64,000 nt of DNA from a virus. Where the stretch lies: positions 64,001 through 128,000 of the IMG/VR virus record IMGVR_UViG_3300045988_180880; one strand, 5' to 3'. A program made the position numbers and the translations under genes. How positions within the stretch are numbered: the stretch's first letter is position 1; each line of letters opens with the position of its first letter. The notes under the pieces are model-generated. The model saw only the letters and a list, made by a program, of their open reading frames with translations, did no database searches and was not told the DNA's origin. Shown piece by piece: positions 4,977-37,336 of the stretch.

Positions 4977-5582
4977 ATGAAGGTACTTAGAATTAAACAC
5001 TTCTCTTCTCTAGTATCTACACAACCAATTTTTAATAGATCTGAACATATGAAGCAACTACATGCTCAAGGAAGATATCAAGGTACTTCTAAAATTGGTA
5101 TATGGAATTCTAGTGAAGAGAAGAGACAAAGAATGGCATTACTTGGAGCTAAAAATGCTTTAGATAAAAATTCTAAAGGTTATGGATCTGAGTATGCAAT
5201 GAGAGTAAATAATAGAATATTACTTGGAAATAAATTTCAAGGAGAAACTGGTTATTTATATTTTGTAAGATATCCGAAATCAATAAAAATTGGATTTTCA
5301 AAGAATTGGGAACGTAGAATTAATACCCAATTGATGAATCAATTTCAAATACTTGGTGGAAAAGTTGTAGCAATTATATCAGGACCTACCAATGAACTAG
5401 CTGATCTCGAGTTTGATACTTTTATTAAATTTCAAAAATATACTAAACTGTCTAAAGACGAAACAAGGTATACTGAATTTTTAGATGATAAAATTAGAAA
5501 AGACGTATATAACTTTTTGGATGATAAAGTAAAAAATAATAGTAATTTGAAATTTATTATACAAAATAAAATAAACCTTTGA
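4977..5582 (+). CDS. Intron-encoded T5orf172/GIY-YIG-like protein
   Basis: GYLYFVRYPKSIKIGFS...R pattern. Lies inside the intron between Q and R. Confidence 0.5.
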   Translation: MKVLRIKHFSSLVSTQPIFNRSEHMKQLHAQGRYQGTSKIGIWNSSEEKRQRMALLGAKNALDKNSKGYGSEYAMRVNNRILLGNKFQGETGYLYFVRYPKSIKIGFSKNWERRINTQLMNQFQILGGKVVAIISGPTNELADLEFDTFIKFQKYTKLSKDETRYTEFLDDKIRKDVYNFLDDKVKNNSNLKFIIQNKINL

Positions 5583-6364
5583 AATTTATGACACAAGAAG
5601 AAATTAAATACCATAATCAACTATGGTATTATAAAACATATAATCAACTTATAGATAAATGTATACAATTGGAGTCTGATGGTTATCCAGAAGATATGTA
5701 TACAGAGGTTCACCATATATTACCTAAATGTATGGGTGGAACAAATAAGGAAGATAATTTAGTAAGAATGCCTGTTAGATATCATATAATGGCTCATTTA
5801 TTACTTGTAAAAATATATCCAAATATAGGAAAAATAATATATGCAGCTAATATAATGATTGTCGGAAATAAAAATACAAGAGCTGAACGAAATCTAGCTT
5901 TAAATCAATTCTCTACAAAAACTATTAGTCAATTAAGGGAAACTATGGCAAATTATCAGAAAGGAAAACCTTTATCAGAAGAACATAAGCAGAAAATTTC
6001 TTTTGCATTAAAAGGAAAAGTACATTCTGAGGATCATAATAGAAAAGTTTCTGAATCTAAAAAAGGAAAACATTTATCAAAAGAAACGAAAGATAAGTTA
6101 AAGTTGTCCCATTTAGGTAAAAGTCTTTCTGAAAGTCATAAAAAAGCTATTGGAAACGCTCTTCGTGGAAGAAAAGGAAAACCTCTCTCTGAGGAAGTAA
6201 GAGAGAAAATTTCTAAAAATAATAAAATGTCAAAAGCTGTTCAGGATTATAATGGTGTAATTTATAATAGTATCTCTGATTGTTCTAGAAAATTAAATAT
6301 TCCAGATAGTACTATTAGTTATTGGATCAAAAAACATCCTGAAAAAGGTTTTAAATTCGTATAA
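5579..6364 (+). CDS. Intron-encoded HNH homing endonuclease
   Basis: EVHHILPKCMGGT..N..H HNH motif. Repeated SEEHKxKIS (NUMOD3-like) modules. Likely true start is the ATG at 5588. Close paralog of 13745-14629. Confidence 0.8.
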   Translation: MKFMTQEEIKYHNQLWYYKTYNQLIDKCIQLESDGYPEDMYTEVHHILPKCMGGTNKEDNLVRMPVRYHIMAHLLLVKIYPNIGKIIYAANIMIVGNKNTRAERNLALNQFSTKTISQLRETMANYQKGKPLSEEHKQKISFALKGKVHSEDHNRKVSESKKGKHLSKETKDKLKLSHLGKSLSESHKKAIGNALRGRKGKPLSEEVREKISKNNKMSKAVQDYNGVIYNSISDCSRKLNIPDSTISYWIKKHPEKGFKFV

Positions 6365-6511
6365 ATAAATTAATCACAATTCAACGACTATGGACAAAAC
6401 CAGGCTAGTGTTGTGATAACCTAGTTTTAACCATGGAAAATATAGTCTTTGCAAGATAGAATTATATCTTGGGTAATCAATATAAGTTGGCTAAAGTATT
6501 GATTATCACAG

Positions 6512-7163
6512 AGTTAATCGCCAACCCTCTTTGCACGAGTACAGTATGTTTAGCATGAAGCTCAAGCTTAATGATTCATATGCAATTGAATTTCCCATCG
6601 CTGTTTGTGAGCCTTTAAATGCTGACTTCGATGGCGATACGTGCTCCATACAACTCGTCCCTCCAGAGGCAGCAGAAGAAACATATCTTAGGATGTCGCC
6701 AAGATATGTGAATGTTTATAAGAAAAATAATGAACCTATATTTAAATTTAACCACGAAACTTTGAATGGTCTTGCAGTTGCATCAGAATACGTATTTGAT
6801 GATCAGGATGAATTAGAAAATCCTAGACACTTTTATACGGATTATGTGCAACTTCTTAAAGATGTTGAAGTAGAGAAAAAAATTAAAGTAGGTACTCCAA
6901 TTACATTCACTGGAAAAATTGGAAATGTTGAATATACCGCTAAAACAACAAGTTATGGTAGACTTCGAATTTCTAAGATTCTAGACGCAGATATGGATGA
7001 AATTGGGATTTTATCTAATAAATATGAACGTATCAGTGCTAAAGCTGCTTCGAAATTATCTTTATATCTTAATCAATTTCCTGATGGAGTTGAGAAAAGA
7101 AAAGCATTACAGAAGCTTGCCCTCAGAATTGTTACATTAGCAGGAGTAGTTACGTTTGACTAT
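6512..7163 (+). CDS. rpoC: RNA polymerase beta' exon 2 (catalytic loop)
   Basis: Contains NADFDGD. Begins NRQPSLH. Confidence 0.85.
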
Positions 7164-7350
7164 AAAATTGTAGCTTAAGAAATAAATTATCTTGAGAAAA
7201 TTCTATTAAAATGCTAGAACTATTAGAATAAAGTAGAATTAGCATCTCTATCTCTTAGATAAAATAGAGTTCAACGACTAAATATAGAACTGTATGAAGT
7301 TATATACAGATGATATAGTCTATCTAAATTAAGAAGATTTAGAATTAATG
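7164..7350 (+). mobile_element. Group I intron, type A, ORF-less
   Basis: AAATGCTAGAAC / TTAGCATC / GTTCAACGACTAA / GATATAGTCTA, then a P9 hairpin and 3' G. P1 is only 4 bp (CTAT/GTAG). Confidence 0.7.
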
Positions 7351-7464
7351 AAAACGTTATATGCTGATTGTGATACTGAGACGTATAAAAGAATATGTAA
7401 TGTTGCAGATTCAAAAGATCTTACTGATAAACAAAAACTTCTTATAATGACTGAAGAATTTCGT
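7351..7464 (+). CDS. rpoC: RNA polymerase beta' exon 3
   Basis: Open frame KTLYADCDTETYKR..TEEFR, bounded by intron cores on both sides. Confidence 0.65.
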
Positions 7465-7637
7465 TAATTATTTTTAGCGACTTAATAATTTTAATTATTA
7501 AGAAAAATAAGAGAATTGCTAGAACTATATATAAAATACTGAACTAGCATCAAGTAGTATTAACTATTTGTTCAACGACTATGTACTTATTATAAAATGA
7601 TATAGTCTACCTTTATTGATTGAATAAAGAGTTAGTG
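7465..7637 (+). mobile_element. Group I intron, type A, ORF-less
   Basis: GAATTGCTAGAAC / CTAGCATC / GTTCAACGACTAT / GATATAGTCTA. P1 TCGT/GCGA. Confidence 0.7.
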
Positions 7638-7766
7638 AAATATGAAAAAGAAGTTTCTGAAAGTTTTAGTACAGATCTTAAAAATGAATTAGCACGTGCA
7701 AATCGTGTAAAACTAAACTCGATTGTAGCAATGTCAATGCCTAAAGAAAAAATTGGGCAATATAAT
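7638..7766 (+). CDS. rpoC: RNA polymerase beta' exon 4
   Basis: Open frame KYEKEV..ANRVKLNSIVAMSMPKEKIGQYN. Confidence 0.65.
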
Positions 7767-7923
7767 GAAAATTAACTCATTATATTAAAATTATGTTAAT
7801 TGCTGGAACTGTAAGAATTATAGAATTAGCATCAAGTAAAAGCTTAAATTATTTGTTCAACGACTATATACATAATATTAAAGATATAGTCTAAACTTAT
7901 ATAAAGTAATATAAGTATCATTG
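7767..7923 (+). mobile_element. Group I intron, type A, ORF-less (about 157 nt)
   Basis: TAATTGCTGGAAC / TTAGCATC / GTTCAACGACTAT / AGATATAGTCTAA, P9 hairpin, tail ATCATTG. Confidence 0.7.
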
Positions 7924-8042
7924 CAATTTATTGTTAGTGGAGTTGATGAAAAACCTGTTATTACACGAGGAACACTTTTGTCAGGATATACAGAAAAAGA
8001 CTATCAGCTTCATTCAATCGAGAATAGATCACTACAGTCAAT
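7924..8042 (+). CDS. rpoC: RNA polymerase beta' exon 5
   Basis: QFIVSGVDEKPVITRGTLLSGYTEKDYQLHSIENRSLQS aligns with the bacterial segment ahead of the bridge helix. The 5' splice site is set by P1 AGTCAAT/GTTGACT with U.G. Confidence 0.75.
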
Positions 8043-9332
8043 TTTAGTTTACCTTTAGTTGACTATAAATTCTACTAAATGCTGGAATTCTGTGAAGAGA
8101 ATCAGCAGTTAATACAAAACTAAGTCATAAAGTTGTGAAATTATTATGGCAGGGAAATTGGAAAAATTTATATTAACAGATAAAGAAGAAATAGATTCTT
8201 TTAATAAATTAATTAGTTTAAATCCGCAACCTGGAAAATCTTTTGATAATTATTTAAAAGTTATCAATCGCGGTCATTATAAAATATGTTTATATAAATG
8301 GTTTACTGGATTAGATGAAGATATTTATGTAACTCAATCTCATTTATATAAACATTTGAATGATAATAGCAAATTTGTTAAAATAACACCTCAAATTTAT
8401 TATGATGTTATAGTATTAGGTTTGACTAATATTAATGATCGTCCTAAATGTGAAATATGTGGAAAAATATCTAGATGGGATGGATTTAAAAGAGGTTATT
8501 TAAAAACATGTTCAGAAAAGTGTTCTGAACTATTAAGAGATAGTAGAATGTCTGAACAAGGATTAAAAAATTTTCACAAATTACAGACAAAAGAGTCTAG
8601 AGAAAAGCAGAGGGAATCACATAAAGGATGGAGTCCTTCAGAAAAACAAAGAAAACAAATTTCTCAACGAATGAAAGATTTCTATAAGACACCAAAAGGA
8701 TTAGAAATGAGAAAGAATTCTAGTAGGTTATTATCTGAAAGAAATATTGAAATGATGAAAGATAAGTCTTATTATAACAAACGAACAGGAGGTAAATATA
8801 AAACAGGTATATATCATTCTAAAGTTTGGAATAAAGATTTTAATTATGATTCATCTTGGGAAATTAATTTTATAAAATTTTTTGAAAAGCAGAAATGGCA
8901 AAGTGAGATAAAAATATTTGATAGGTGTTTAGATTCTATTATTTATAAATGGGATGATGGAACTGAACATAGATATCTACCTGATTTTTACATCAAATTT
9001 AAATCAGGTCTTCAAGTTGTTATTGAGTTAAAACCAGCAAATCTAATAGAAAAAGATCCGGTGATTTTAGCCAAAAGAATAGCAGCGAAGAAATACTTTG
9101 CAAAAAGAAATATAAAATATATTATATTATCTGAAAATGAACTATTCACAACTAGATATATAAAGTATACTAAATTATCTGAAAGTTTAGGAATAGTTAA
9201 TTCATTTAATATTTATGATTACATAGTTTAATTAAGATTTAGTTTTGTATTAATTCAACGACTATATGTAGAAACTTATGTGAATAAGAAAGGTATAGTC
9301 TAAGTCTTTATGAATAAATAAAGATATCACTG
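8043..9332 (+). mobile_element. Group I intron core (type A) with endonuclease ORF; first half of a tandem insertion
   Basis: AAATGCTGGAAT (8081) / AATCAGCAG (8104) / ATTCAACGACTAT (9253) / GGTATAGTCTAA (9292), P9 hairpin, tail ATCACTG. Confidence 0.65.
8146..9231 (+). CDS. Intron-encoded PD-(D/E)xK-type endonuclease
   Basis: C-terminal PDFY..VIELKP (D..ExK). Cys-rich CEICGK..CSEKC. NUMOD-like SxxxKxKIS repeats. Confidence 0.55.
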   Translation: MAGKLEKFILTDKEEIDSFNKLISLNPQPGKSFDNYLKVINRGHYKICLYKWFTGLDEDIYVTQSHLYKHLNDNSKFVKITPQIYYDVIVLGLTNINDRPKCEICGKISRWDGFKRGYLKTCSEKCSELLRDSRMSEQGLKNFHKLQTKESREKQRESHKGWSPSEKQRKQISQRMKDFYKTPKGLEMRKNSSRLLSERNIEMMKDKSYYNKRTGGKYKTGIYHSKVWNKDFNYDSSWEINFIKFFEKQKWQSEIKIFDRCLDSIIYKWDDGTEHRYLPDFYIKFKSGLQVVIELKPANLIEKDPVILAKRIAAKKYFAKRNIKYIILSENELFTTRYIKYTKLSESLGIVNSFNIYDYIV

Positions 9333-9388
9333 AAAAGTTAGTGGAGTTAGAAATAAAACCTGAACTTTATGGTAGCCCACTATAAATA
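9333..9388 (+). pseudogene. Decayed duplicate of the 5' end of beta' exon 5 (pseudo-exon)
   Basis: AAAGTTAGTGGAGTTAGAAATAAAACCTG resembles TTGTTAGTGGAGTTGATGAAAAACCTG at 7931, with a 1-nt indel. A stop is met in the frame set by exon 5. Confidence 0.5.
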
Positions 9389-9780
9389 ACAAAGAAATGC
9401 TGGAAATAATAATAGACAGACGAAGTCAAAGTTTTTTAAAATCAGCAACTTATCAACGAGAAAAAGATGAATTATTAGTACTTTTTAAAACTTAATGTGT
9501 AGATTTGAAAAATTCTTAGAAACTCTAAGGCTTGTTGGAAGTATAGCAAGAACTATACTCTCTGGAATTGAAGAATATAGAAAAATTCAAGAAACAAAAG
9601 CTTATCGAGAGAATAAGAAAAATAATGTAAAATATCTACCAAGACCAAAAAGGTATAATAGTAGAAGAAAACAAAGATAAGATCAACGACTATGTATTGT
9701 TAGATTAAGGAAACTCTTTAATCATGATATAGTCTAATCTTACGTGAATAAGCGTAAGCAGGATAAGAGATTAGAAGACG
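9389..9780 (+). mobile_element. Group I intron core (type A); second half of the tandem insertion
   Basis: AAATGCTGGAAAT (9395) / AAATCAGCAAC (9439) / GATCAACGACTAT (9681) / GATATAGTCTAA (9726), P9 hairpin. No convincing P1 of its own. Confidence 0.55.
9495..9680 (+). CDS. Small basic ORF inside intron core
   Basis: 61-aa ORF with a K/R-rich C-terminus. No endonuclease motif. Confidence 0.3.
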   Translation: MCRFEKFLETLRLVGSIARTILSGIEEYRKIQETKAYRENKKNNVKYLPRPKRYNSRRKQR

Positions 9781-10106
9781 TCTTTTAAAAATTATAATAT
9801 CTAATCTCTTTGAATGGCCTAGTTCAGGATATTTAACACGACAAATTTCATTCCTTTTAAATAGTTTTATATATCATGAAGGAGAAGATCCAGAAAACAC
9901 AGGATTACTCATTCCACGATATAAAGCATTAGGAAGAACAGCACCGAACGGAAAGGTATACCCAGACAAACCAATAGTAAATGGTTCTGAGGATGATCTT
10001 GTTCCAGTACGTTCGATTGTTACAAAAAGAACTGGAGATTTAAGCACAATTACACCAGACCTGATTGGAAAGAAATTTAGTTTTACTGATGGAGCAGCAA
10101 TAGGAT
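9781..10106 (+). CDS. rpoC: RNA polymerase beta' exon 6 (bridge helix region)
   Basis: SSGYLTRQ matches bacterial NSGYLTRR. The frame is open only from 9767. The track lists no ORF here because there is no start codon. Confidence 0.75.
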
Positions 10107-10353
10107 AAGTTTAGAATTGTCCATAAAAGTTTGTTATAGACTTTTATTAAACTTCAAGAATTGCTGGGAGTATTATCGCTATTTATTCTTCGCCTTGTAA
10201 AATAAAAAACTTAAGGCGAAAATTATATAGCGAGAGATAATCAGCAAAAGATATAGAAAATATATCTTCTTAACGACTATGTGTGAAGGAGAGATTAAAA
10301 CACTCTTAAGATATAGTCTAGTAATCTATATAAAGTTTGTATAGGTTTAATCG
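10107..10353 (+). mobile_element. Group I intron, type A, ORF-less
   Basis: GAATTGCTGGGAG / TAATCAGCA / CTTAACGACTAT / AGATATAGTCTA. The junction gives GAAIG-L-SFATS. Confidence 0.7.
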
Positions 10354-10400
10354 TATCATTTGCTACATCATTAACTGAAGGTACTACTCAATTAAAATTG
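10354..10400 (+). CDS. rpoC: RNA polymerase beta' exon 7 (trigger-loop base); 3' end approximate
   Basis: SFATSLTEGTTQLK matches bacterial AAQSIGEPGTQLT. The 3' boundary is uncertain by about 10 nt. Confidence 0.6.
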
Positions 10401-10573
10401 GTTGCTATATAAAATAGTATTATATAGAAAATCTTTGTAAAATGCTGGAAATTAAAAAAAAATAATCAGCATCAAGGAATATATTAATAACTTGTTCAAC
10501 GACTATAAAAAAAGATCTTATTAATTTAAGAATGGTATAGTCTAAATTCATTCTAAAAGGATGAATAATCTTG
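10401..10573 (+). mobile_element. Group I intron, type A, ORF-less (boundaries approximate)
   Basis: AAATGCTGGAAAT / TAATCAGCATC / GTTCAACGACTAT / GGTATAGTCTAA, then a P9 hairpin. Confidence 0.65.
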
Positions 10574-10602
10574 CAGCATTAGGTCTGAAACATGGTGGCC
10601 AT
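10574..10602 (+). CDS. rpoC: RNA polymerase beta' exon 8 (about 29 nt)
   Basis: Encodes ALGLKHGGH (bacterial RTFHIGG). The 3' end is set by P1 GCCAT/GTGGC with U.G. Confidence 0.65.
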
Positions 10603-10762
10603 AGATTATATTTGTGGCGTATAATTTCAATAATTGCTGGAAATATTTGTAATAAAATAAATCAGCAGGGGAAAATAAAATCCCTTCAACGACTATAAAT
10701 GAAACTAGATGAATTTCTGGATGATATAGTCTAACTTATAAATTATATTATAAGAGTAATTG
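10603..10762 (+). mobile_element. Group I intron, type A, ORF-less (about 160 nt)
   Basis: TAATTGCTGGAAAT / AAATCAGCAGG / CTTCAACGACTAT / GATATAGTCTAA, 3' G at 10762. Confidence 0.75.
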
Positions 10763-11002
10763 GAACGTGTGCTTAATACAGAAGGAAATCTTAAAGCACC
10801 AAAACAATGTGAGTTTAGAGAGGAAGGCAGATGGATTTACCTAAAAGTTAGAGGAGGAGAATTAAAATATCCGAGACCTAATAATTGGGTAGGAGTAGGT
10901 AAGACAAAATTTGAGAAAGGTGACTTAATAGGGTCAGCTTATAATACTACCTCGCCTATTTACAAGTTGAACGCTCTCATAAAACTTATGCGTGCCAAAG
11001 GT
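10763..11002 (+). CDS. rpoC: RNA polymerase beta' exon 9
   Basis: Open frame ERVLNTEGN..MRAKG. Ends in AAAGGT, the type B insertion site. Confidence 0.7.
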
Positions 11003-11195
11003 GAATATAAAATTGCCGTCTAAGGAAGTAATTCTCTAGATAATTAGTAAGTAAATTTGGTGAAGCTAGTAACTAGTAATACCAAGCCTTGGATTAATAA
11101 TTAGAATCTTAAGGTATAACGAATAAAGACTTACCAACTTTTTTATAAGTTGAATTTATATTCTAAACTATAATAAGAAAATTATAGATAAATTG
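11003..11195 (+). mobile_element. Group I intron, type B, ORF-less
   Basis: GCCG guide, P2 hairpin, AGTAAGTAAATTTGGTGAAG / AATACCAAG / TATAACGAATAAAGACTTACC / AATTTATATTCT, terminal hairpin, tail ATAAATTG. Confidence 0.7.
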
Positions 11196-11804
11196 AGTGA
11201 TGGCACAAGATATTTTGAGAAGGATAATGTTATTGTATCTGATTGTTATGCTTTGAATGATGGGGTTATTCATTACAAAGAGACCAAGGAAGGTGATACT
11301 GAAGTTTGGATTGGTGATACTCAGTATGACTATAATCCAGAGTGTATGTATTATTTTCCTGATGGTACAGAGATTAAGAAATTTCAAAGAATTTCCAGCG
11401 GAGTTTGCAATATGAATCATGTTATTGCAGAGTTGGGTTCTAATATTAATGATATTTACTTAATCTTTAGAAAACAATTTTATACTTTAACAGATGGAGG
11501 ATTTGTATCAACTGGTTTATCAGATCTTCATGCTACACAGGAAGAACTTATTGAACTTTTATTCACAGGTTTAACTGATGTAGGTGTAGATCCAGAAACA
11601 CAGAAGATTGAAGACATCCAATATCTAGGTACTCAAAGTGGTGTTTTAAATAAGAAGTCATTCTATACTGTTTTGTCTTACGGTTATAGCTCTAGAGTTG
11701 TGTCTAAAGCTCTCAAAGGGGAATTAAATCTTTCTGGTGACGTAATGACAGAAACTATATTAGGATTACTTTTAAATAATAAACTTGACGAAAAACAAAA
11801 GTAA
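11196..11804 (+). CDS. rpoC: RNA polymerase beta' exon 10 (C-terminal)
   Basis: Open frame SDGTRYFEKDN.. running to the stop at 11804. Confidence 0.7.
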   Translation, partial: SDGTRYFEKDNVIVSDCYALNDGVIHYKETKEGDTEVWIGDTQYDYNPECMYYFPDGTEIKKFQRISSGVCNMNHVIAELGSNINDIYLIFRKQFYTLTDGGFVSTGLSDLHATQEELIELLFTGLTDVGVDPETQKIEDIQYLGTQSGVLNKKSFYTVLSYGYSSRVVSKALKGELNLSGDVMTETILGLLLNNKLDEKQK

Positions 11805-11813
11805 AAACAAATT

Positions 11814-12092
11814 ATGGGAACTATTAAATTTGAAATAGATCTTCCAGAATTTGAAAAAGAGTTGAGTATTAATGTAACTATTCATAGAGACGGTGAGGTG
11901 GTTTATACTACTACTACCTCATCTTCCTCTGTGGATAAATCTAATAATACTAATCTTTTATCGAGCCTTGGAAGTAAACCCGAGCAAGAAAAATGTATCT
12001 CTGTGGATGGAGATAAACAAAAAGAAGAAAAACCCAAGAAAGCATCAACTACATCTCGAAGGGGAGGAAATTTGATGAACTTGGATATATGA
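11814..12092 (+). CDS. Hypothetical protein
   Basis: ORF between beta' and beta. S/T-rich and K/E-rich low complexity. Confidence 0.45.
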   Translation: MGTIKFEIDLPEFEKELSINVTIHRDGEVVYTTTTSSSSVDKSNNTNLLSSLGSKPEQEKCISVDGDKQKEEKPKKASTTSRRGGNLMNLDI

Positions 12093-12123
12093 TGATTAAA
12101 ACCAGAGAAGAGAATTTTTTGTT

Positions 12124-12474
12124 ATGAACGATAATTATTATAAAATTATACTATCATATGAAATTCCATATAACATTTTAGACAGTCAAGATCCGAATAT
12201 TATACAGGCGAGAGAAATATTATATGAAAAACTTAGAGATGATATTTTTCCGAAGTATGAAAGATTTTCGGTAAAGCTTACATTACATCAACTTAAAGAT
12301 AACTTCAATTATCTTGTTACTTATGAAGCTTTTTTTAGATCTCTTGATGGTAAACCTATGGGAGAATATGTAGAGGCTCGTAGCTTAAAAGATAGTATTA
12401 AATCAGAATTAGAAACATTTTTTAATTCAGTAGATTGCGAATATAAGCAATTAAATATAAAACCATTAGTATAA
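12124..12474 (+). CDS. Hypothetical protein
   Basis: ORF whose stop overlaps the beta start (TAATG). Confidence 0.55.
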   Translation: MNDNYYKIILSYEIPYNILDSQDPNIIQAREILYEKLRDDIFPKYERFSVKLTLHQLKDNFNYLVTYEAFFRSLDGKPMGEYVEARSLKDSIKSELETFFNSVDCEYKQLNIKPLV

Positions 12475-13336
12475 TGAGTAATTTTAATCAATATTTCAGA
12501 AACACTGGAGCAAAAATTATAGTAGATCGATTTTTTAATAAAGTTGATGCATATAATCCTAAAGTAAAAGTTGGAAAAATTGGATATTCATTTATAGAAG
12601 AACCTCCTCAACCAGCTTCTTACTATATTGAAAATGGATTAACTGCTACACATAAAGTAAGAATTGAATATACAACTATAACGGATGGGAAAGAAGATCC
12701 TGAAATGAAGTATGCAGAGTTCGAAGTTCCTAAAGAAATTGATGGTGCATTTATTATAGAAGGCGCTTATCGTATTTCAACTAATCGAATGGGATCTGAT
12801 TATGACTGTCGTATTAAAATGTCTGGTACAGGAGATTATAAAGTTAATTTCGACTATGATAGAGTTTACGATATTCAAAAACAGATTCTGAAGATAAAAA
12901 GAATTAATCCGGAACTTGGAATTGCAGATAAACCAATTGATATAAAGTTTGAAGACATTGATAAATACTTGGAAACTGATAAAAAGGAGATCTTGAAGTT
13001 AACTGAAAGACAAACCAAGAAATTAATGATCAAACTTGACTTGGATTATAAACCTGAATATATTACACAAAAACTAATACAGGAATGTTTGGCCTTTGGA
13101 GATGATAGACTAAAAGACTTAATCATTGATAAAACATTAGAATCAGTTCCTAACAGTTTTATGCAATATATTTTTAGGAATAATAATGGACGTAACTATT
13201 TTGCAGCTAGACGAAGAATTACATCATATTTTACAAAGTATGGTAAAATTCAAGATCAAGTTACTGCAATTAGTACTTTGTGTTTTAGATTTTTTAAAGG
13301 AAGTAGCGATAACAAAGGAGATTCAGGAGTACAGGT
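12474..13336 (+). CDS. rpoB: RNA polymerase beta homologue, exon 1
   Basis: DGAFIIEGAYRISTNRM resembles bacterial GTFVINGTERVIVSQL. Ends in CAGGT ahead of the type B guide GCCG. Confidence 0.8.
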
Positions 13337-13557
13337 ACAAAATATAAAGGTGCCGTTTTATGGAGAAATCTATAAAATTATTAGTAAGTAAATTCGGTGA
13401 AGGGTAAAACCTAATACCGAACTAAGGATAATGAAAATTTTTAGTGTAACGAATAAAGACTTACTAACTTATAATTAAAATATAAGTTAAATTTATATTC
13501 TGTTCTATATAAGTAGAACTTTATTTATATAGTTAACAATAAAGCCCCCCTGGAGTA
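13337..13557 (+). mobile_element. Group I intron, type B (3' boundary unresolved)
   Basis: GCCG, P2 hairpin, AGTAAGTAAATTCGGTGAAG / AATACCGAAC / GTGTAACGAATAAAGACTTACT / AAATTTATATTCT, terminal hairpin ending at 13531. Confidence 0.6.
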
Positions 13558-13641
13558 AATTCCATTAACTTAGAGGCAATCTCCCAAAAAATTGTTATTC
13601 CTGCGAGTGTAGCCTTTAATTCGACTTTTACAGATTTAGAT
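13558..13641 (+). CDS. rpoB: RNA polymerase beta exon 2 (5' end approximate)
   Basis: The only open frame is ISINLEAISQKIVIPASVAFNSTFTDLD. The 3' end is set by P1 TTAGAT/GTCTGA. Confidence 0.5.
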
Positions 13642-14763
13642 TAAGTCTGATTATAGAATATTTTTTATAATAAAAACTTTGAGAATTGCTAGAAAACTAG
13701 TGATAGTTAATTAGCAGTATAAAATAAGTATAATTATTTATGCGTTGAGAGGAAAAATTTTTGAAAGGAATTTAAGAATGACGCATGTAAAAGAAATTAA
13801 ATACCACAATCAATTATGGTATTATAAAACGTACAATCAGTTAATAGATAAGTGTATACAGATGGAGTCTGAAGGTTATCCTGAAGATATGTATACAGAG
13901 GTTCACCACATACTACCTAAATGTATGGGTGGGACAAATGATGAGTCTAACTTAGTAAGAATGCCAGTTAGGTATCATATAATGGCACATTTATTGTTAG
14001 CACAAGTATATCCAGAAATAAATGGATTAGTTTATGCAGCACATGTTCTAGTCTCAGTGAATAATTCAGTTGTATCTACGAATACAGCTGCATTAATTAG
14101 AGAAGATTTTAAAAAGTCTAGAATAGGATCTCATCATTCAGAAGAGACAAGGAGAAAAATTTCTGAATCTAACAAAGGAAAAGTTATCCCTAGAGAACTA
14201 GTAGAGAAGTTAAGATCTATTAATTTAGGGAAGAAACATTCACTTGAAACGAGAAAGAAGATGTCAGAAGCTAGAAAAAGAGAGAATTTATCCGAGGAAA
14301 CACTAAGAAAAAGATCTCTAGCGTCCTCTGGAAGAAAACATTCTGAAGAAGTCAAGAAGAAGATTTCTATAGCTAATACTGGAAAAATTTTTAGCGAAGA
14401 ACACAGACAAAACATATCTAAAAGTAAGATGGGAAAAGGACATCCACATACTGAAAAAACAAAGAAAATGATGTCTGATACTAGCGTTAAGAGAAAAAGA
14501 GTTCAAGGCCCTGATGGAATAATTTACGAATCTATGAAACTTTGTTGTGAGAAATTTAATATTCATAGAGATACCCTTCGAAGCTGGATTAAAAATCACC
14601 CAGAAAAAGGCTTTAAATTTATTGATTAAAAAATTTATCATTACTATAAATTCCTTTCAATGTAATGAAATTTAATACTTATTTTATATTCAACGACTAT
14701 GTACAAAGAGGGAAATTCCTTAAGATATAGTCTAGTGATAAAGTAAAAAACTTTATCTATTCG
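13642..14763 (+). mobile_element. Group I intron, type A, with HNH ORF
   Basis: GAATTGCTAGAAA / TTAGCAG / ATTCAACGACTAT (14690) / AGATATAGTCTA, P9 hairpin, tail TATTCG. Confidence 0.8.
13745..14629 (+). CDS. Intron-encoded HNH homing endonuclease
   Basis: EVHHILPKCMGGTN and repeated SEETRxKIS modules. C-terminal WIKNHPEKGFKF. Likely start is the ATG at 13778. Confidence 0.8.
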   Translation: MRGKIFERNLRMTHVKEIKYHNQLWYYKTYNQLIDKCIQMESEGYPEDMYTEVHHILPKCMGGTNDESNLVRMPVRYHIMAHLLLAQVYPEINGLVYAAHVLVSVNNSVVSTNTAALIREDFKKSRIGSHHSEETRRKISESNKGKVIPRELVEKLRSINLGKKHSLETRKKMSEARKRENLSEETLRKRSLASSGRKHSEEVKKKISIANTGKIFSEEHRQNISKSKMGKGHPHTEKTKKMMSDTSVKRKRVQGPDGIIYESMKLCCEKFNIHRDTLRSWIKNHPEKGFKFID

Positions 14764-15132
14764 TTAGTCGATATTGCCGACACTCCTATAAATAATAATA
14801 CTAACCTCCAGAACTCACTTACAGTTTCATGTCATATTACAGACGATGATGTACTATTTGATGTATATGATACAAATTTCGTAAAAATAACAATAAAATA
14901 TATAGACTATCTTAATAAAAAAGTAGCTGCCAGTGAGTATGTAGATTATGAAACTAACACTTTAAAGCCAGATAAAGATGGTCAAGTGGAGGTTAAGTAT
15001 AGGATGAAAAGAAAGATGGTTCCAGTCGAAGAAGTGGAATTGATCGATTTACATCCTGATTACAGATTGTCTAGCACAACTCGAAGAATCCCATTTGTGA
15101 ATTATACAGATAGTGTCAGAATAAGCATGGGT
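14764..15132 (+). CDS. rpoB: RNA polymerase beta exon 3
   Basis: LVDIADTPINNNTNLQNSL resembles bacterial RVCPIETPEGPNIGLINSL. IPFVNYTDSVRISMG resembles IPFLEHDDANRALMG. Confidence 0.8.
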
Positions 15133-15326
15133 ACTAATTTATGTGCCGCTTAAAGTAGTAATATTTTAAGTAACCAGTAAGTAAATTCGGTGAAAGAGTG
15201 ACTGAGCTTTAATACCGAGCTAAAGATAATAGATTTCTTTAGTGTAACGAATAAAGACTTACTAACCAAAATAAAGGTTAAATTTATATTCTAAACTATA
15301 ATTAAAAGTATATTATAGAAGATTTG
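15133..15326 (+). mobile_element. Group I intron, type B, ORF-less
   Basis: Follows ATGGGT. Same conserved core as 11003-11195. The junction restores MG-TSMLKQSIPL (bacterial MGSNMQRQAVPL). Confidence 0.8.
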
Positions 15327-16266
15327 ACATCAATGCTTAAACAGAGTATACCTCTGATTAATGCGGAGCGTGCACTTGTTGACACTGGAAGGAATGAAGA
15401 GTTGAAAGATAATATATTAAATGAAAAGTTCAGTTATCCAGAGGGTAAGGTAAAGGATATAACAGAGGATGAAGTTATAATTGAATTGCCTGATGGAACT
15501 GAGACAAATATTTTACGAAGAACAGCGATTCAGAGTATAAATGACGTGGCGGTATTTACAGAGCCTAAAGTAAAAATCGGCCAAAAAGTAAAACAGGGAG
15601 ATATTATAACTGGTGCAGTTGGACATACTCCTGAAACATATAAGGCCGGCGTTAATGCTCTGGTACTTTTCCACGCCTATTATGGTTTAGTAAATGAGGA
15701 TGCTTTGGTGATATCAGAATCATTTGCAAATCGTATAGCATCTTATAGTATAATTGACTTAATGATTAATGTTAAGAGTACTAGTGCTATTAAGTGGATC
15801 GCCCCTATTGGAACAAAGGTTAAATCAAAAGATGCAGTAGTGACATTATATAAAGCTGTTCGTCTTGATGCTATAAATCAGGCACTACAAGAAAAACTCG
15901 GAGGACTTTTCGGAGAAGGACATGATCTCTCCGAATATACTATCGAGGATCATTTAGTTGTGCCTAATAATATAGACGAGGCAATAGTTTCTGATGTAAT
16001 GATACAGGAAATGAAGAAACCTAAAATTCCTAAATCAGTAAAATCACCTGACTATTCATTTACACATACCTCTCAGGATGTTATAGATGAATATGAAAAA
16101 ACAAAATCTCGAAAAATTATCTACGAGAAATACCCAGAGTATATTGCAGCTGATACATTAGATCCTATTAATATGGATCCAGAAGCGTATAAGATTGTGT
16201 ATACTGTTCGCGTGAGACTCATCAAAAGAACTGTGGGAATGATCGGAAGTAAAATTACCTCTAGAT
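15327..16266 (+). CDS. rpoB: RNA polymerase beta exon 4
   Basis: NALVLFHAYYGLVNEDALVISE resembles bacterial [22 protein letters not shown]. P1 CTAGAT/GTCTAG. Confidence 0.85.
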
Positions 16267-17666
16267 TTAATATAAGTCTAGTTAATTTTCAATAAAAGTT
16301 AACTAAATTTTGTGAATTGCTGGAAAAATCTAAATAAAATAGATGGATAGATAAATCAGCAGTATATTTATGTTTAATTATGAGTAAAATATGAGCGATA
16401 TTAATTTTTAATAATAAATTGAACAATGAGCGAAGAAGAAATATTAATACATAATCAAAATTGGTATCGCAAAGTATATTTCCAAATAATTGATCGCGCT
16501 AGATTAAGAGGTTTGGATAAAAATAAAATTGATTTTTATGTAGAAATTCATCATATACTACCTAAATGCCTAGGAGGAACTGATGAAAATGATAACTTAG
16601 TTGCATTAACTTATAGAGAACATATAGTTTGTCATAAATTATTGTGTAAATTATACCCAGATAATTACTACTTACATTCTTCTATATATTTAATGCTACA
16701 TATTAAAATAGAAAATGGGAAGAAGGTAAAAACATTTTCTAATTCTAAAGAGGCAGAAGAATATAAGCTTTTCTTGAAAACTCATAAAAAGCCTCTTTCT
16801 GAGGAATCTAGAAAAAAGATGTCAGAATCGCATAAAGGTTGGAGTCCATCTGAGGAACATAGAAGAAGAGTTTCAGAAGTACATACTGGAAAAATCGTTT
16901 CAAAAGAAACCAGAGAAAAATTAAGAAAGGTTAATCTGGGAAGACATCATACAGAAGAATCCAAAAGAAAGATATCAGAGTCACGTAGAGGAAAGAAATT
17001 ATCTTCAGAACAAAAAGAAAAAATTTCAAAATCACTAAAAGGAAAAAGATTAGGAATCTCTCCAACTAAGGAACAAGTAGAAAAAGCAAAACAAACTCGG
17101 ATACTCCATGGAGGGTGGGTACATACAGATGAAAGTAAAAGAAAAATTTCAGAATCTTTAAAGAAGACGAATTCTGTCTCTGAACATATATCAGAAGATA
17201 TAAGAAATTCTTTAAGGAAAAAGTTTGGGTTCGCTGTAAGATATACTGATATTAATACTGGTGAAATTTACGAATTTGATTCAATTACAAAAGCTGTTAG
17301 TGAACTTAAAGAGTTAAGTATTATGAATAAAAGCTTTCATTTTATAAAGCGTTCTTGTACATTAAATATTAATGGATTTGAATTTATCAATGAAACAAAT
17401 GAAATGATTCAAAAGAAAGTTCAGGGGCCTGATGGAATTATTTACAATAGTATATCTGAATGTGCTAGACAATTGAATACAGTTAGATCTGTAATTATTG
17501 ATTGGATTACTAATCATCCAGAAAAAGGATTTAAATACATTTAAAAAATCAATCGCTCATTGATATAAAAATAATTAAATAAAATATATTCAACGACTAT
17601 GTACAAAGAAGGAGTATTTCCTTAAGATATAGTCTAGACTTTACTTAATTAAGTAAAGTATTATCG
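16267..17666 (+). mobile_element. Group I intron, type A, with HNH ORF
   Basis: GAATTGCTGGAAAA / AAATCAGCAG / ATTCAACGACTAT (17589) / AGATATAGTCTA, P9 hairpin, tail ATTATCG. Confidence 0.8.
16426..17544 (+). CDS. Intron-encoded HNH homing endonuclease
   Basis: EIHHILPKCLGGTDENDN..H and repeated SEExRxKxS modules. C-terminal WITNHPEKGFKY. Confidence 0.8.
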   Translation: MSEEEILIHNQNWYRKVYFQIIDRARLRGLDKNKIDFYVEIHHILPKCLGGTDENDNLVALTYREHIVCHKLLCKLYPDNYYLHSSIYLMLHIKIENGKKVKTFSNSKEAEEYKLFLKTHKKPLSEESRKKMSESHKGWSPSEEHRRRVSEVHTGKIVSKETREKLRKVNLGRHHTEESKRKISESRRGKKLSSEQKEKISKSLKGKRLGISPTKEQVEKAKQTRILHGGWVHTDESKRKISESLKKTNSVSEHISEDIRNSLRKKFGFAVRYTDINTGEIYEFDSITKAVSELKELSIMNKSFHFIKRSCTLNINGFEFINETNEMIQKKVQGPDGIIYNSISECARQLNTVRSVIIDWITNHPEKGFKYI

Positions 17667-17680
17667 ATGGAGGCAAAGGT
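17667..17680 (+). CDS. rpoB: RNA polymerase beta exon 5, a 14-nt micro-exon
   Basis: ATGGAGGCAAAGGT. Joined to its neighbours it gives SR-Y-GGKG-VVS, matching bacterial GRHGNKGVIS with identical spacing. Confidence 0.7.
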
Positions 17681-17871
17681 CAAATTACAAGGCCGTTTAA
17701 GGTAGTAATATCTTAAATAATCAGTAAGTAAATTTGGTGAAGGAAGTAAAATTCTAATACCAAGCTAATAAAATATAATAATTTATTAGTATAACGAATA
17801 AAGACTTACTAGGTTGAAATAATACCTAAATTTATATTCTAATTTACTAGGATAATCTAGTAATAGTAATG
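17681..17871 (+). mobile_element. Group I intron, type B, ORF-less
   Basis: Follows AAAGGT. Has GGCCG, a P2 hairpin and the conserved type B core. Tail TAGTAATG. Confidence 0.75.
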
Positions 17872-18645
17872 GTTGTAAGTGCTGTGAAACCCGACGATAT
17901 GATGCCAATAATGGTAGATAAGGATGGGAAACAAAGACGTTGCGAAGTAGTGATGAATCCATACAGCACAATAAATCGTAAAATTCCGAGTGTCCTTATG
18001 GAATTACAACTCGGAAATATCGCTCACAAATTACACGATCTTGTAGATAATTATAAGAAAACAAAAACAGGGCAAAAGAAGATTAAGCCCCTTCTTGAAA
18101 CATATTACCCCGGACGTTTTACTAGTATGGATGTAGAAGAAATTATAGAACGTCATAATACTAGTAAAATCGAGGATATGTATTATTTCAATGTTGGCTG
18201 CTTCTCTACTAAATTTACTCCAGAACTTGTAAATCAATGGGCTGAAGATTTAGGTGTAGAAAGTCAGAGTAAAATTCTTATGCCTGAGACTGAATTAACA
18301 GATCTCGATGAATTAAAAGAAAATCTAGAACCAGAAGAATATGATAAATTAGTTTCTGGAATGTCTGGTAAGTTTAGAGAAGTAGATAAACCTTTGCAGG
18401 CGGGATTCATGACCCTTGAAGAGTTATACCATATACCATCATATAGTAATAAGGTTACATCAAGTCTATATGGCGTAGATATTAATGCTAAACGAGATGA
18501 ACCTATACTTGGAAAGGGACGCTATAGACAGACAGGACAGAAAATTGGTGAGATGGAATTGGCCGTATTACTTTCTAGAAATGCGGATCAATTTATCAGC
18601 GGTGCTAGAAAAGACACTGCGAAGGAAGATAATCAAATGTTCCTT
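17872..18645 (+). CDS. rpoB: RNA polymerase beta exon 6
   Basis: VVMNPYSTINRKIPS resembles IVLNPLGVPSRMNIGQ. GQKIGEMELAVL resembles GGQRFGEMEVWAL. Confidence 0.85.
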
Positions 18646-18833
18646 AAATTATTGAGGCTAGTATCAATACAAACTGATACTAGAAAATATCTTAAATTGC
18701 TGGAACAAAGTAGAAAATCAGCATCAAGCTGTTGTTTTATAATTAACAGCTTGTTCAACGACTATAGTAGATACTAAAGAATACTTATTTTAGATAATAT
18801 AGTCTTACTTTAAATAAAATTAAAGATGAATAG
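18646..18833 (+). mobile_element. Group I intron, type A, ORF-less
   Basis: AAATTGCTGGAAC / AAATCAGCATC / GTTCAACGACTAT / TAATATAGTCTTA, P9 hairpin, tail ATGAATAG. P1 CCTT/GAGG. Confidence 0.7.
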
Positions 18834-18862
18834 AATAACTTATTAGGTCTAGGATTAACCGT
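18834..18862 (+). CDS. rpoB: RNA polymerase beta exon 7 (29 nt)
   Basis: Encodes NNLLGLGLT(V). P1 AACCGT/GCGGTT with U.G. Confidence 0.6.
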
Positions 18863-19046
18863 AAACTATTTGCGGTTTTAAATTATATTAAAATGCTAGA
18901 ATATTTATAATAAATATATTAGCAAAATATCTTACCTTAGATTATATCTAAGAAAAAGATATTCTCAACGACTAAATATATAACTAAGTTTGAAATATAA
19001 TTTAGATGATATAGTCTGAACATAGATTAATAATAATCTAGTAACG
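18863..19046 (+). mobile_element. Group I intron, type A, ORF-less
   Basis: AAATGCTAGAAT / TTAGCAA / CTCAACGACTAA / GATATAGTCTGA, P9 hairpin, tail GTAACG. Confidence 0.7.
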
Positions 19047-22941: not shown

Positions 22942-22959
22942 TGTTATAATTATGTCTAG

Positions 22960-23050
22960 TATCGGGAGGGGAGCTCGAATCCCCACGGGTCTTATTTTTC
23001 TGCCCAAAACATTTTAAGTGTTTCTTGTCTACCTATTCCAACATCCCGAC
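22960..23050 (-). tRNA. tRNA-Leu (UAA) with long variable arm
   Basis: Reverse complement GTCGGGATGTTGGAATAGGTAGACA..CTTAAAA..GGGGATTCGAGCTCCCCTCCCGATA. Anticodon loop CTTAAAA. Extended variable arm. Confidence 0.85.
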
Positions 23051-29820: not shown

Positions 29821-30310
29821 TTTCTATCTCTACTTCTAATGGAAATAATCTCTTAATTTCAAACAGTTTTAAATATTTATCATTATATTGATCCATAAAA
29901 TCTTTCACTTCTTTATAATGATCAAATACCCAATTTCCATTAAGACTATTTAATACCTTTGATTTATCTTCAAGTTGAAATAGGTAAGTTTCAATAGTAA
30001 TATCATTTCCTGAACCGTGATAGGATTTAGGAGTACTACTTATCCTTTCAATATCAAATATATCTCCCCAAATTGGATCTCTCCAATCTATATCGAGTAC
30101 GTAAAATATTAATTCTCGAAGAAAAGATAATTCGAATAATTTATTAAATGAGTTTCCTGATCCTTTCCATTCATACTTAAAAGAGTTAACTTTATCTTCC
30201 AAGCCCCAAGATTTTATTAAGTCTAAGAGTTCAAGATAAAGTCTATTCCATTCTTCTTTTGGTTTTTCTACAATTATTGCTTCTTGTTTAAATTCCAATA
30301 GACTTTTCAT
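29813..30310 (-). CDS. Hypothetical protein
   Basis: ORF. Confidence 0.5.
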   Translation of the reverse strand: MKSLLEFKQEAIIVEKPKEEWNRLYLELLDLIKSWGLEDKVNSFKYEWKGSGNSFNKLFELSFLRELIFYVLDIDWRDPIWGDIFDIERISSTPKSYHGSGNDITIETYLFQLEDKSKVLNSLNGNWVFDHYKEVKDFMDQYNDKYLKLFEIKRLFPLEVEIENV

Positions 30311-31811
30311 AATAACTTCTTAAGATTGTATAACTTGCTTTCCAAACTAAATCTAAATTTCTCACTTGTAAATCTGTTTTAAGGTAAGATCTTAATTGAT
30401 TATAGTAACTATTAGGATCATTTCTTTCAACACTTCCCAACAATTGATCTATATTAATCCCAGTACTTTCCCACTTAAATCGATCTATAACAAGTAATTT
30501 ATTAAGATCTAGTTGTTGTTTAATATTACTAAGAGATCCTATATAATTATTCATTCGATCTAGTCTTTCAGTACACATAGGATTTCCACATTTCAAAAGA
30601 CTTCCATAAACATCTTTTTCTGACAAATTATAACCACAGCTACAAGTTGGCCACATAAAATCTCCATTACCTTCAGTAAAAGAATCCCCTACCATTGGAA
30701 TAGTTGAATTAGCCATAATAATACTTACTATTGCTCCAGGGGTAATTTTCTTTTTTACCATTTTTCCCACACTTCCAGCACTTGGTTTTCTTACTGTACA
30801 TCCTTTTACTTGAATTGGATCGATTAGAATATTAGCTGACCAAGAATCTTTTCCTTTAGCTACTTGAGAATTCCATTGTATACCTCTTACTGTAGTTTTT
30901 AAAGCTTCAGTTCCTGATCCAGCACCAGCAAATTTTAAGGCGCCGAGACATATTCCAAATTCATCATATACTACCCAACCATCATTTAAGAAGTAACCAG
31001 TTGAAGTAACTGTTTTATCTGTTTCTGTATATTCTTTATTTCCGGCGCTCATAAGTTCTTCTATAGTCCATACATCGGCAGGGGAAAATAAGATATGTCC
31101 ATCAGTTTTTGAACATACAGTTTCAAACATTTTTAAAACTTCACGATAGTCTGTTTTTCTTAGTATTTGTCCTTCTATTGAATCATCAGTATAATATCTA
31201 TAAGCTCTAAGAGTTAATAAATTATTTACCTCAGATTCACAATACTTAGAATTTATTAGTCCATTGGCTCTTTGTCTAGCAGTTTCAGGATCAGTATCAG
31301 AAAGTCGATTAATGTCAACTAATGCCTCTGCCTGAATTGCTACTATACCTTTCGGAAATCTTTTTGGAAGGAAGTTTATTAATTTCCAAGTTTGATCTAC
31401 CCCATAGTTATCCAAATTTAAATTTCCGACTGTAACTATTCTTTTTGGAATACCAGTTGAAGAATCTAAATAAATTGCTATACTAGATCCATCATACTTT
31501 AGATCACAGTATTTTCCAGAGTTTTCATTCATAAACTCTGAAAGAGCACTTAACATAGTTTTTTCTTCAACTTTTTTCTTTTTAATTTTTTCTATATAAG
31601 AATTTTTTGTCTTAGTTCCTTTTAAGTATGTTTGATAAACATAATCTCTGACAAAAAATCCATCTTCTTGCGCTGCTCTAGCTTCTAACATATCATATAC
31701 AGCATCATCCATTCCGGTAGGTACTGAATCAATATAATAGTTTTTACATGCAAGAATAAGGTCTTTCCATTTTTCTAATGATTTTTCTGTAATATTATTT
31801 GTAACGCACAT
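30288..31811 (-). CDS. ligA: NAD-dependent DNA ligase-like protein
   Basis: N-terminal YYIDSVPTGMDDAVYDML (LigA Ia-like). Adenylation motif CDLKYDGSS (KxDG). Cys4 cluster CSCG..CGNPMC. Confidence 0.7.
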   Translation of the reverse strand: MCVTNNITEKSLEKWKDLILACKNYYIDSVPTGMDDAVYDMLEARAAQEDGFFVRDYVYQTYLKGTKTKNSYIEKIKKKKVEEKTMLSALSEFMNENSGKYCDLKYDGSSIAIYLDSSTGIPKRIVTVGNLNLDNYGVDQTWKLINFLPKRFPKGIVAIQAEALVDINRLSDTDPETARQRANGLINSKYCESEVNNLLTLRAYRYYTDDSIEGQILRKTDYREVLKMFETVCSKTDGHILFSPADVWTIEELMSAGNKEYTETDKTVTSTGYFLNDGWVVYDEFGICLGALKFAGAGSGTEALKTTVRGIQWNSQVAKGKDSWSANILIDPIQVKGCTVRKPSAGSVGKMVKKKITPGAIVSIIMANSTIPMVGDSFTEGNGDFMWPTCSCGYNLSEKDVYGSLLKCGNPMCTERLDRMNNYIGSLSNIKQQLDLNKLLVIDRFKWESTGINIDQLLGSVERNDPNSYYNQLRSYLKTDLQVRNLDLVWKASYTILRSYYEKSIGI

Positions 31812-37163: not shown

Positions 37164-37336
37164 TACTAAATTTAATATGGTATTAAATTATTAGACTATA
37201 TCATCTATTTTTCATAGTTATACATTTAGTCGTTGAACAAGTAACTAATATTCCTTGATGCTGATTTATGTCTTACATTTTCCAGCATTTTAGTATAATT
37301 TTCTTAAATTTTATTATTTAAGCGACTAAGCAATTA
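37164..37336 (-). mobile_element. Group I intron, type A, ORF-less
   Basis: The - strand reads AAATGCTGGAAAA / AAATCAGCATC / GTTCAACGACTAA / GATATAGTCTAA. P1 CGAT/GTCG. Coordinates may be off by 1-2 nt. Confidence 0.7.

Follow-up and report, generated by a model that had tools for sequence, protein, structure and literature searches.

A compact family of predicted group I introns that follows GGT in essential genes of human-gut huge phages

The stretch of viral DNA analysed here (the window) comprises 64,000 nucleotides, positions 64,001 to 128,000 of the IMG/VR record IMGVR_UViG_3300045988_180880, and is phage-like sequence of about 29% GC. On its + strand, between about 6.3 and 19.1 kb, the genes for the beta' and beta subunits of a multisubunit-type RNA polymerase are split into many small open reading frames (ORFs). 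Two kinds of insert, here called type A and type B, break these genes up. Type A is present in about 16 copies (6380-19020, +; 37190-37710, -; about 45986-46144, -) and shows the P/Q/R/S boxes classical for group I (aattgctggaa, atcagca, ttcaacgacta and gatatagtcta). Type B, the subject of this report, has five copies, B1 to B5, so that the two kinds together make up about 21 introns within the window.

Four of the type B copies interrupt RNA polymerase genes on the + strand. B1 (11003-11195, 193 nt) lies in a beta'-like gene between ...MRAKG and SDGTRYFEKDN, B2 (13337-13544, 208 nt) in a beta-like N-terminal gene, B3 (15133-15326, 194 nt) in a beta-like gene between RISMG and TSMLKQSIPL, and B4 (17681-17871, 191 nt) in a beta-like gene between ...YGGKG and VVSAVKPDDMMP. 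B5 (40539-39512, 1028 nt) is found on the - strand in an SF2 helicase gene, inside the Walker A motif (TGYG↓KTET; the arrow marks an insertion point or predicted splice junction throughout). The 3' ends of B2-B4 were placed by reading frame, terminal G and homology, and the final intron base is G in all five copies. The 191-208 nt of B1-B4 hold no ORF; an endonuclease gene is present only in B5. The type B core reads AGTAAGT-AAATTYGGTGAA...TAATACCRA...GTRTAACGAATAAAGACTTAC...AAATTTATATTCT. A covariance model, R1, was built from B1-B4 and spans the guide to the P7 3' strand; B5 was left out since a MAFFT alignment that included it misaligned P1 and P3'. Run on the window, R1 recovers exactly the five copies, scoring 150, 138, 157 and 137 bits for B1 to B4 (E 1e-26 to 1e-30) and 64 bits for the B5 core at 39736-39597, while the next matches are type A introns at no more than 34 bits. 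A preliminary description made from the letters of the window had proposed that these five segments share a distinct core and form a second, divergent group I family, and the R1 scores, which set them apart from type A, bear out both points; relatives in other contigs are picked up by the same model.

The anatomy is best followed in B1 (all positions on the + strand). The upstream exon ends ...AAAGGT, and its final GGT (11000-11002), an in-frame Gly codon, forms the exon strand of P1 by pairing with the internal guide GCC (11015-11017), the last U being in a U.G wobble. This guide is invariant in every type B copy. The AUU just 5' of it (11012-11014) can pair either with the intron start, as a P1 extension, or with AGU of the 3' exon, as P10. 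The P2 hairpin (11020-11039) carries a GUAA loop of the GNRA type; compensatory changes among B1-B4 affect four of its eight pairs. The 5' strand of P3, GTAAGT (11047-11052), pairs with ACTTAC (11129-11134), which is invariant in B1-B4 and covaries in B5 and in relatives. In the P4-P5-P6 domain (11056-11114; P4 TTTGGT/ACCAAG, P5 GCTAG/CTAGT) a U-A to C-G covariation is seen in P4, and P5 and P6 are compensatory as well. P7 is formed by GAATA (11121-11125) and TATTC (11159-11163), with a G-C pair at the position of the guanosine-binding site. The P8 hairpin (11135-11152) shows compensatory changes between copies, and the P9 hairpin (11168-11187), found in every copy with differing sequence, is followed by the tail ATAAATTG up to the terminal G at 11195, after which the 3' exon resumes in frame.

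B5 is the outlier of the family. Its P7 reads GCAUA/UAUGC, an additional hairpin stands between P7 and P3', and a LAGLIDADG homing-endonuclease ORF of 267 aa with an N-terminal helix-turn-helix (40516-39713, -; Pfam LAGLIDADG_3 E=2e-10, HTH_7 E=6e-6) lies in its P1 loop. The 3' end of this ORF runs over the guide and P2. Because the gene fills the P1 loop, the B5 guide is about 800 nt from the 5' splice site. The preliminary description had placed a conserved GCCG 10-15 nt downstream of every 5' junction; this is correct for B1-B4 (11-15 nt) but not for B5, where GCCG is at 39736-39733. The hairpin said to follow GCCG is present in B1-B4, with a GNRA loop. Also the described replacement of a long-range stem in the helicase copy was found: this stem is P3, AGTAAGT/ACTTAC in B1-B4, and in B5 (39599-39704, -) TAGGAC (39704-39699) pairs with GTCCTA (39604-39599), compensatory relative to B1-B4 at 6/6 positions.

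All five type B junctions restore conserved proteins, and intron-free alleles back three of them (B1, B2 and B4); in the following, L-numbers are labels of the compared viral contigs or loci. At the B1 site, the homologues in L004 and L072 read AKGSDGTR unbroken. B2 splits the codons ...CAG GT↓C CCC (Gln-Val-Pro), and the empty site of L015, acaGGTcccccctggagt, is nucleotide-identical to the ligated exons. The spliced B3 protein RISMG↓TSMLKQSIPL aligns without gaps to Thermus beta RALMGSNMQTQAVPL; likewise spliced B4, ...GGKG↓VVSAVKPDDMMP, aligns without gaps to Thermus HGNKGVVAKILPVEDMP, and L015 has tatGGTGGTaagGGTgttgta without interruption. Splicing of B5 rebuilds Walker A, and the ResIII, DEAD and AAA_11 Pfam matches cross the junction. 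Examples of predicted ligated junctions are ...GCCAAAGGT↓AGTGATGG... and GCCAAAGGT↓AGTGATGGC. Between a type A intron with its terminal G at 17666 and B4, a mini-exon of only 14 nt, ATGGAGGCAAAGGT (17667-17680, +), was recognized from the intron-free allele ...agaTATGGTGGTAAGGGTgtt of L015, and it gives the spliced B4 protein SRYGGKG. A probable 12-nt exon, ACTGAAGATGGT, stands between two type B introns in L106 (matches 7893-8043 and 8105-8256). With exons of 12-14 nt between introns, both flanking ribozymes must draw P10 and P1 from a single small set of bases.

Filled and empty sites coexist among related phages. B2 was found in the window and in L116 and is missing from six relatives (L015 and five more). 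At NADFDG↓D the window is itself the empty allele, its beta' NADFDGD being unbroken (6618-6640) with GGC as the Gly codon, and in L015 (240-440) a type B intron splits the motif after GGT. Intron-free alleles sometimes lack the pairing bases, as with this GGC and with AGT at the B2 site in L018-type alleles. The codon after the B1 junction is Ser AGT in filled alleles and Ser TCC in the empty allele of L004. Comparison among these phages establishes the predicted fold, the exact excision as read from collinear alleles, and the presence/absence polymorphism. The two relatives without B1 (L004, 11010-11157; L072, reverse strand, 12795-12610) have a type A intron 9 nt upstream, after ATGCGT↓ and with the guide GCGCA; alternative introns thus use adjacent positions in one conserved stretch of beta'. 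An additional insert of about 185 nt is present in beta of L018 (8821-9006) and L048 (6622-6437) after ...GAGGTTGTGAT↓, and the window (about 17950) lacks it.

The order of elements in type B is P1 (GGU↓...GCC), P2, P3, P4, P5, P5', P4', P6, P7, P3', P8, P7', P9 and a terminal G, and this predicted order corresponds to the topology of group I introns, P3/P7 pseudoknot included. In B1-B4, 97.5% of the proposed pairs are formed and 13 pairs are compensatory, which was matched by 0/500 shuffles, and pairing falls to at most 52% when the partner strand is slid. Across 72 distinct aligned relatives 92.5% of the pairs are formed and 38/40 pairs are compensatory. P3 is 99.5% paired in these relatives, with compensatory changes in all six pairs, and P7, which is outside the structure of R1, is 97% paired. 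The first P7 pair is G-C in 66/69 distinct sequences and, from its position, would be the one that binds guanosine; the third changes from C-G in the canonical GACUA/UAGUC to A-U in type B GAAUA/UAUUC. Minimum-energy folding also gives P2-P6, P8 and P9 for B1 (z = -3.3) and, in addition, P1 for B3 (z = -4.0). At 40-64 bits R1 further matches phage introns of higher GC content, anticodon-loop introns of tRNA-Leu(UAA) among them, and Rfam recognises these as Intron_gpI at 51-87 bits; group I membership of type B is in this way supported transitively. Intein and group II intron were considered as identities and rejected. The covariation, the U.G-closed P1, the terminal G and the exact excision from collinear alleles support the assignment of B1-B5 as group I introns.

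Further copies were sought by two pattern scans of IMG/VR, and guide and exon were left out of both patterns. In related contigs type B occupies 16 distinct sites, and GGT stands directly before all 16. Only 3.1% of T-ending triplets are GGT in this genome (probability of GGT given xxT, 0.031). The sites include NADFDG↓D and MRAKG↓S in beta'; Q-V (B2), RISMG↓T, RYGG↓KG and GGKG↓VV in beta; RRPG↓MYIG in a GyrB-like gene; GYG↓KT in the helicase; KGPAG↓, GPRG↓A and GSKW↓; and the tandem pair with the 12-nt exon between. Covariation extends to the fourth P1 pair at the GPRG site, with GGGU/GCCC in L023 and AGGU/GCCU in L125. Among phage introns of normal GC content with a GCC(U/C) guide, 16/17 follow GGT, at no fewer than eight different sites, some of them out of frame. 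The preliminary description had stated that the 5' exon always ends in GGT and is read by a GCC guide; this holds for all five window copies and for the 16 type B sites, and for all but one of the 17 GC-richer relatives.

The pairing around the guide extends beyond GCC. P1 is extended by 1-4 bp between the first bases of the intron and the bases 5' of GCC, and the 3' exon that follows each intron begins with 3-4 nt to which these bases are also complementary (P10), for example AGU/AUU in B1, ACAU/AUGU in B3, UUGU/ACAA in B4, AAAG/CUUU in L018 and UGUAU/AUACA in L037. Over nine sites 29/45 P10 positions pair, whereas permuting introns and exons gives 18.8 ± 2.9 (p=0.0003). B4 (GGKG↓VV) and its sister of 75% identity at L018:8545 (YGG↓KG) occupy sites 6 nt from each other in alleles of a single gene, and the guide extension of each fits its own 3' exon. 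The suggestion that a generic P1 of 3 bp explains spread to many glycine codons is therefore only partly upheld: the guide proper has three bases, but P1 is extended and site-specific P10 adds about 3-4 bp, so that recognition exceeds 3 bp. Glycine itself is incidental. In this genome 65% of coding GGT triplets are in-frame Gly codons and type B is in frame at 13/16 sites (p=0.14), thus without enrichment of Gly codons, and a special link to them was ruled out on this comparison and by B2, the GGT of which spans Gln and Val codons. GGT is used regardless of frame also at the GSKW site and at a 'TSSDFNTV' site in other phages. Group I introns with a GCC guide after GGT occur in a number of unrelated viral contigs (L062, L098, L022, L036, L075, L080, L093, L070, L052, L065, L067, L044 and L063, the last with GGGT and GCCC); their GC is about 32-53%, and Rfam accepts those tested.

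The guides of type A are of another kind. They are site-specific and 4-6 nt long (CUAGAU/GUCUAG, UUAGAU/GUCUGA, GGAU/GUCC, UGCGU/GCGCA), and so a constant guide is a trait of type B. Several type A introns (window 13645, 16290, 10107 and about 8040) sit after (A/G)GAT↓ with a guide that begins GUC, and P1 of type A may be partly conserved too, though the type A intron of L004 uses UGCGU/GCGCA. Four homing-endonuclease-like ORFs lie in or beside type A introns on the + strand (13745-14629, 16426-17544, 8146-9231 and 5579-6364). NUMOD3 modules are carried by three of these, one of which has I-HmuI-like and another I-TevI-like DNA-binding modules; the remaining ORF has a TnsA-like PD-(D/E)xK domain. 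They are 140-500 nt away from the ORF-less B2, B3 and B4. Searching Rfam over the whole window, at the gathering threshold and at E≤10, reported none of the roughly 21 introns; on a short sub-window only weak Intron_gpI matches were obtained, at 29 bits for type A and 10.9 bits for B1.

In its fold type B is closest to the compact IC3 class, and we term it 'IC3-like', a label that stops short of established IC3 membership. B1-B4 consist of P1-P9 only, with a single P2 and without P5abc, P2.1 or P7.1/P7.2; IC3 introns are without P5a-d (PMC11835236). Like the IC3 tRNA introns of tRNA-Leu(UAA) and Azoarcus tRNA-Ile, type B is compact (about 200 nt, P1-P9) with a GNRA loop on P2, which is GUAA, GAAA or GCAA in nearly all copies, and it has the same P4/J4-5/P5 sequence AAAUUCGG(U/C)GAA. 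R1 matches phage tRNA-Leu introns over the full model at 42-60 bits, these loci having been preselected by the common P4-P5 motif. Splicing of L012 and L002 in silico yields tRNA-Leu(UAA) with CTT↓AA, in a brute-force procedure that also gave many spurious tRNAs, and ARAGORN called no intron-containing tRNA. Group I introns in the anticodon loop of tRNA-Leu(UAA) (CTT↓AA), the archetypal place for IC3, are common (L002, L006, L012, L026, L049 and many more), and several of the loci checked are located within or next to arrays of tRNA genes on viral contigs. Type B differs from the IC3 tRNA introns in its protein-coding hosts, in P7 (GAAUA/UAUUC, not GACUA/UAGUC), in P3 (AGUAAGU), in its GC content of about 25% and in an L9 that is not GNRA. 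Furthermore, type B serves many sites with one invariant guide, whereas each tRNA intron keeps to one site. The Azoarcus IC3 ribozyme reads just three exon bases, CAU with GUG. Several small, related introns also share a single gene, orf142, in Staphylococcus phage Twort. These Twort introns and the T4 td, nrdB and nrdD introns are IA-type, with P7.1/P7.2, site-specific guides and far fewer copies than type B, and to our knowledge no common 3-nt target has been described for them.

In the IMG/VR scans near-identical type B introns were found only in human-gut huge-phage contigs of up to about 378 kb (full-length about 212-378 kb) and about 30% GC. The type B core had no match in 185,579 bacterial and archaeal genomes. 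A megablast of 10700-13700 and a tblastn of a beta fragment found nothing among the INPHARED GenBank phages, so the lineage is without a deposited relative there. The phages with type B resemble the Jug (jumbo gut) phages, which are human-gut huge phages of 360-400 kb and about 30% GC with fragmented genes and many HNH and LAGLIDADG endonucleases, and in which subtype models found 2513 group I introns of about 206 nt on average in 136 genomes (PMC12880540; preprint PMC12363816). Contigs with type B introns near-identical to those of the window (e.g. IMGVR_UViG_3300045988_180488) belong to the huge-phage collection of that paper; one named Jug genome was not among the exact matches to B3. In the parts of its text drawn on here, the introns are not split into families and no guides, insertion-site rules or empty alleles are given, and the average of 18.5 introns per genome stated there is exceeded by the roughly 21 of this single 64-kb window (PMC12880540). 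In jumbo phage PhiPA3, too, a gene for multisubunit RNA polymerase is interrupted by a group I intron, but it is a single intron that encodes its own HNH endonuclease and is used in phage-phage competition, and B1-B4 are ORF-less (PMC11620839). A further parallel is offered by group I introns of rDNA whose movement has been attributed to reverse splicing; these are also ORF-less and linked between different sites only by guide complementarity (PMC3984707, PMC2504315). Those target rRNA with guides of 4-6 nt, while type B resides in phage mRNAs and genes, combines a fixed 3-nt guide with a variable P10, and is found in filled and empty alleles within one phage population.

From this anatomy one may propose that type B splices by the standard group I pathway. 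The exon GGU would pair with the invariant 5'-GCC guide 11-15 nt into the intron, and the U.G wobble would mark the 5' splice site. The copy-specific bases 5' of GCC would pair first with the intron 5' end, completing P1 by 1-4 bp, and after that with 3-4 nt at the start of the 3' exon; the P10 so formed would align the two exons for ligation behind the terminal G. The usual core, made up of P3-P8 and P4-P6, would surround the conserved G-C pair of P7. Spread from allele to allele may proceed by homologous recombination, the introns probably being carried along with adjacent type A introns that encode endonucleases, and new sites may be colonised by reverse splicing at GGU, with the P10 part of the guide adjusted afterwards. 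An adjacent type A intron (in the window, the one with an I-HmuI-like HNH ORF) accompanies B4 in 5/5 B4-bearing relatives, and the intron-bearing B2 alleles have a common 5-nt flanking patch that fits DNA-level recombination in allele-to-allele spread. Together with the presence/absence pattern, these observations fit recombination or co-conversion with neighbouring endonuclease-bearing introns.

Taken as a whole, the observations are very probably best explained by compact, IC3-like self-splicing group I introns that are guided by GGU/GCC and reside in essential phage genes. Several points weigh against this explanation or against the proposed route of spread. B1 reaches only 10.9 bits in Rfam Intron_gpI (RF00028), where the gathering threshold is 50 bits. 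L9 of type B is not GNRA, unlike that of Azoarcus, and the AU content of J8/7 and P7 exceeds that of characterised ribozymes, so that certain copies may splice poorly or require a protein as helper. Splicing of B1-B5 is deduced by comparing sequences. One of the nine sites tested for P10, L023:2024, has no convincing P10, the flanking patch of B2 points to the DNA level, and introns at different sites are just 53-83% identical, which means that the transpositions cannot be recent ones and that the path they took is not directly readable. An improbable alternative is that the copies are degenerate relics which no longer self-splice, and which depend on phage or host factors or leave the genes as non-functional fragments. 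The very AU-rich cores, the Rfam score well under threshold and the lack of GNRA in L9 would suit this, as would the metatranscriptome support for just 37/76 predicted Jug introns (PMC12880540). However, the sites of type B fall within invariant catalytic motifs (NADFDG↓D, MG↓xNMQ, GxKG↓V and Walker A) encoded by essential genes, where failure to splice would be lethal. Moreover, compensatory changes preserve every helix, and at least 70 copies retain the guide, the G-C pair of P7 and the terminal G, which argues for purifying selection on ribozyme function. Least probable is that these are not introns at all, being either a dispersed intergenic repeat (a terminator or regulatory RNA) between gene fragments or lariat-capping ribozymes of the GIR1 type. 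A gene caller does treat the flanking ORFs as separate small genes, and the length of about 200 nt resembles GIR1; short length led the Jug paper to suggest lariat-capping (PMC12880540). Against this, the exons join in frame and without gaps relative to cellular RNA polymerase, collinear intron-free alleles contradict it, and exons of 12-14 nt cannot be genes. An intergenic repeat or terminator was rejected on the collinear intron-free alleles and the in-frame exons, and GIR1 since type B carries a U.G splice site in its P1, has P10, ends in G and lies directly between exons, not nested in an intron.

How group I introns of this kind came to so many sites is a question on which we are less certain. 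Colonisation of new sites by reverse splicing has, in our estimate, a nearly even chance of being correct. The exact ends at 16 sites, the frame-independent use of GGU and the sisters 6 nt apart make up the classical signature of this process (PMC3984707, PMC2504315). The wider proposal, that type B and the GC-richer relatives with the GCC guide form an endonuclease-free lineage which colonises phage protein genes by reverse splicing, targeted by GCC and with the P10 part of the guide re-tuned once each jump is made, is put forward tentatively, as falling somewhat short of an even chance. It is also possible, though we would not favour it, that GGU/GCC was merely inherited: homing endonucleases, free-standing or in neighbouring introns, would have made ectopic cuts in DNA, and selection would have kept those insertions at GGT that were able to splice. 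The region is indeed rich in endonucleases, with the I-HmuI-like HNH/NUMOD ORFs close to B2, B3 and B4, a TnsA-like nuclease and the LAGLIDADG gene of B5 itself; the constant company of B4 and the patch of B2, which resembles co-conversion, are in line with this, and relaxed endonuclease specificity has been reviewed as a route of ectopic insertion (PMC3984707). It would nevertheless require 16 independent insertions each with exact intron ends at GGT, which reverse splicing gives for free, and two sister introns placed 6 nt apart exactly behind GGT. The use of GGT irrespective of frame (B2, GSKW and 'TSSDFNTV') argues for pairing at the nucleotide level and not for targeting of a protein motif.

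Type B is thus of a known kind, group I, and stands out by the generality of its site rule, by its co-varying P10 and by the coexistence of filled, empty and alternative sites. Standard tools miss it together with type A, as seen from the Rfam search, and essential genes of abundant human-gut huge phages consequently look like strings of small orphan ORFs, whereas a family-specific model recovers the introns and yields exact predicted splice junctions. How group I introns arrive at new sites is a long-standing question for which the support for reverse splicing is circumstantial and comes from rRNA. The invariant 3-nt guide, at least 16 GGU sites, the co-varying P10, sisters 6 nt apart and empty alleles with or without GGU make this question directly testable, and filled, empty and alternative neighbouring sites in one phage population do the same for reverse splicing in particular. 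If true, a lineage spreading in this way would give the clearest natural evidence yet that group I introns can transpose outside rRNA under RNA guidance. Being small (about 190 nt), low in GC (about 25%) and equipped with a minimal guide, such a natural ribozyme may also interest engineers of ribozymes or circular RNA.

Three other genes of the window may be mentioned. A GroEL-like chaperonin (32822-34441, -; PHROG E=9e-120) and a relative of NAD-dependent DNA ligase (30288-31811, -) both suit the genome of a huge phage, and the tRNA-Leu(UAA) gene of the window (22959-23050, -) is without an intron.

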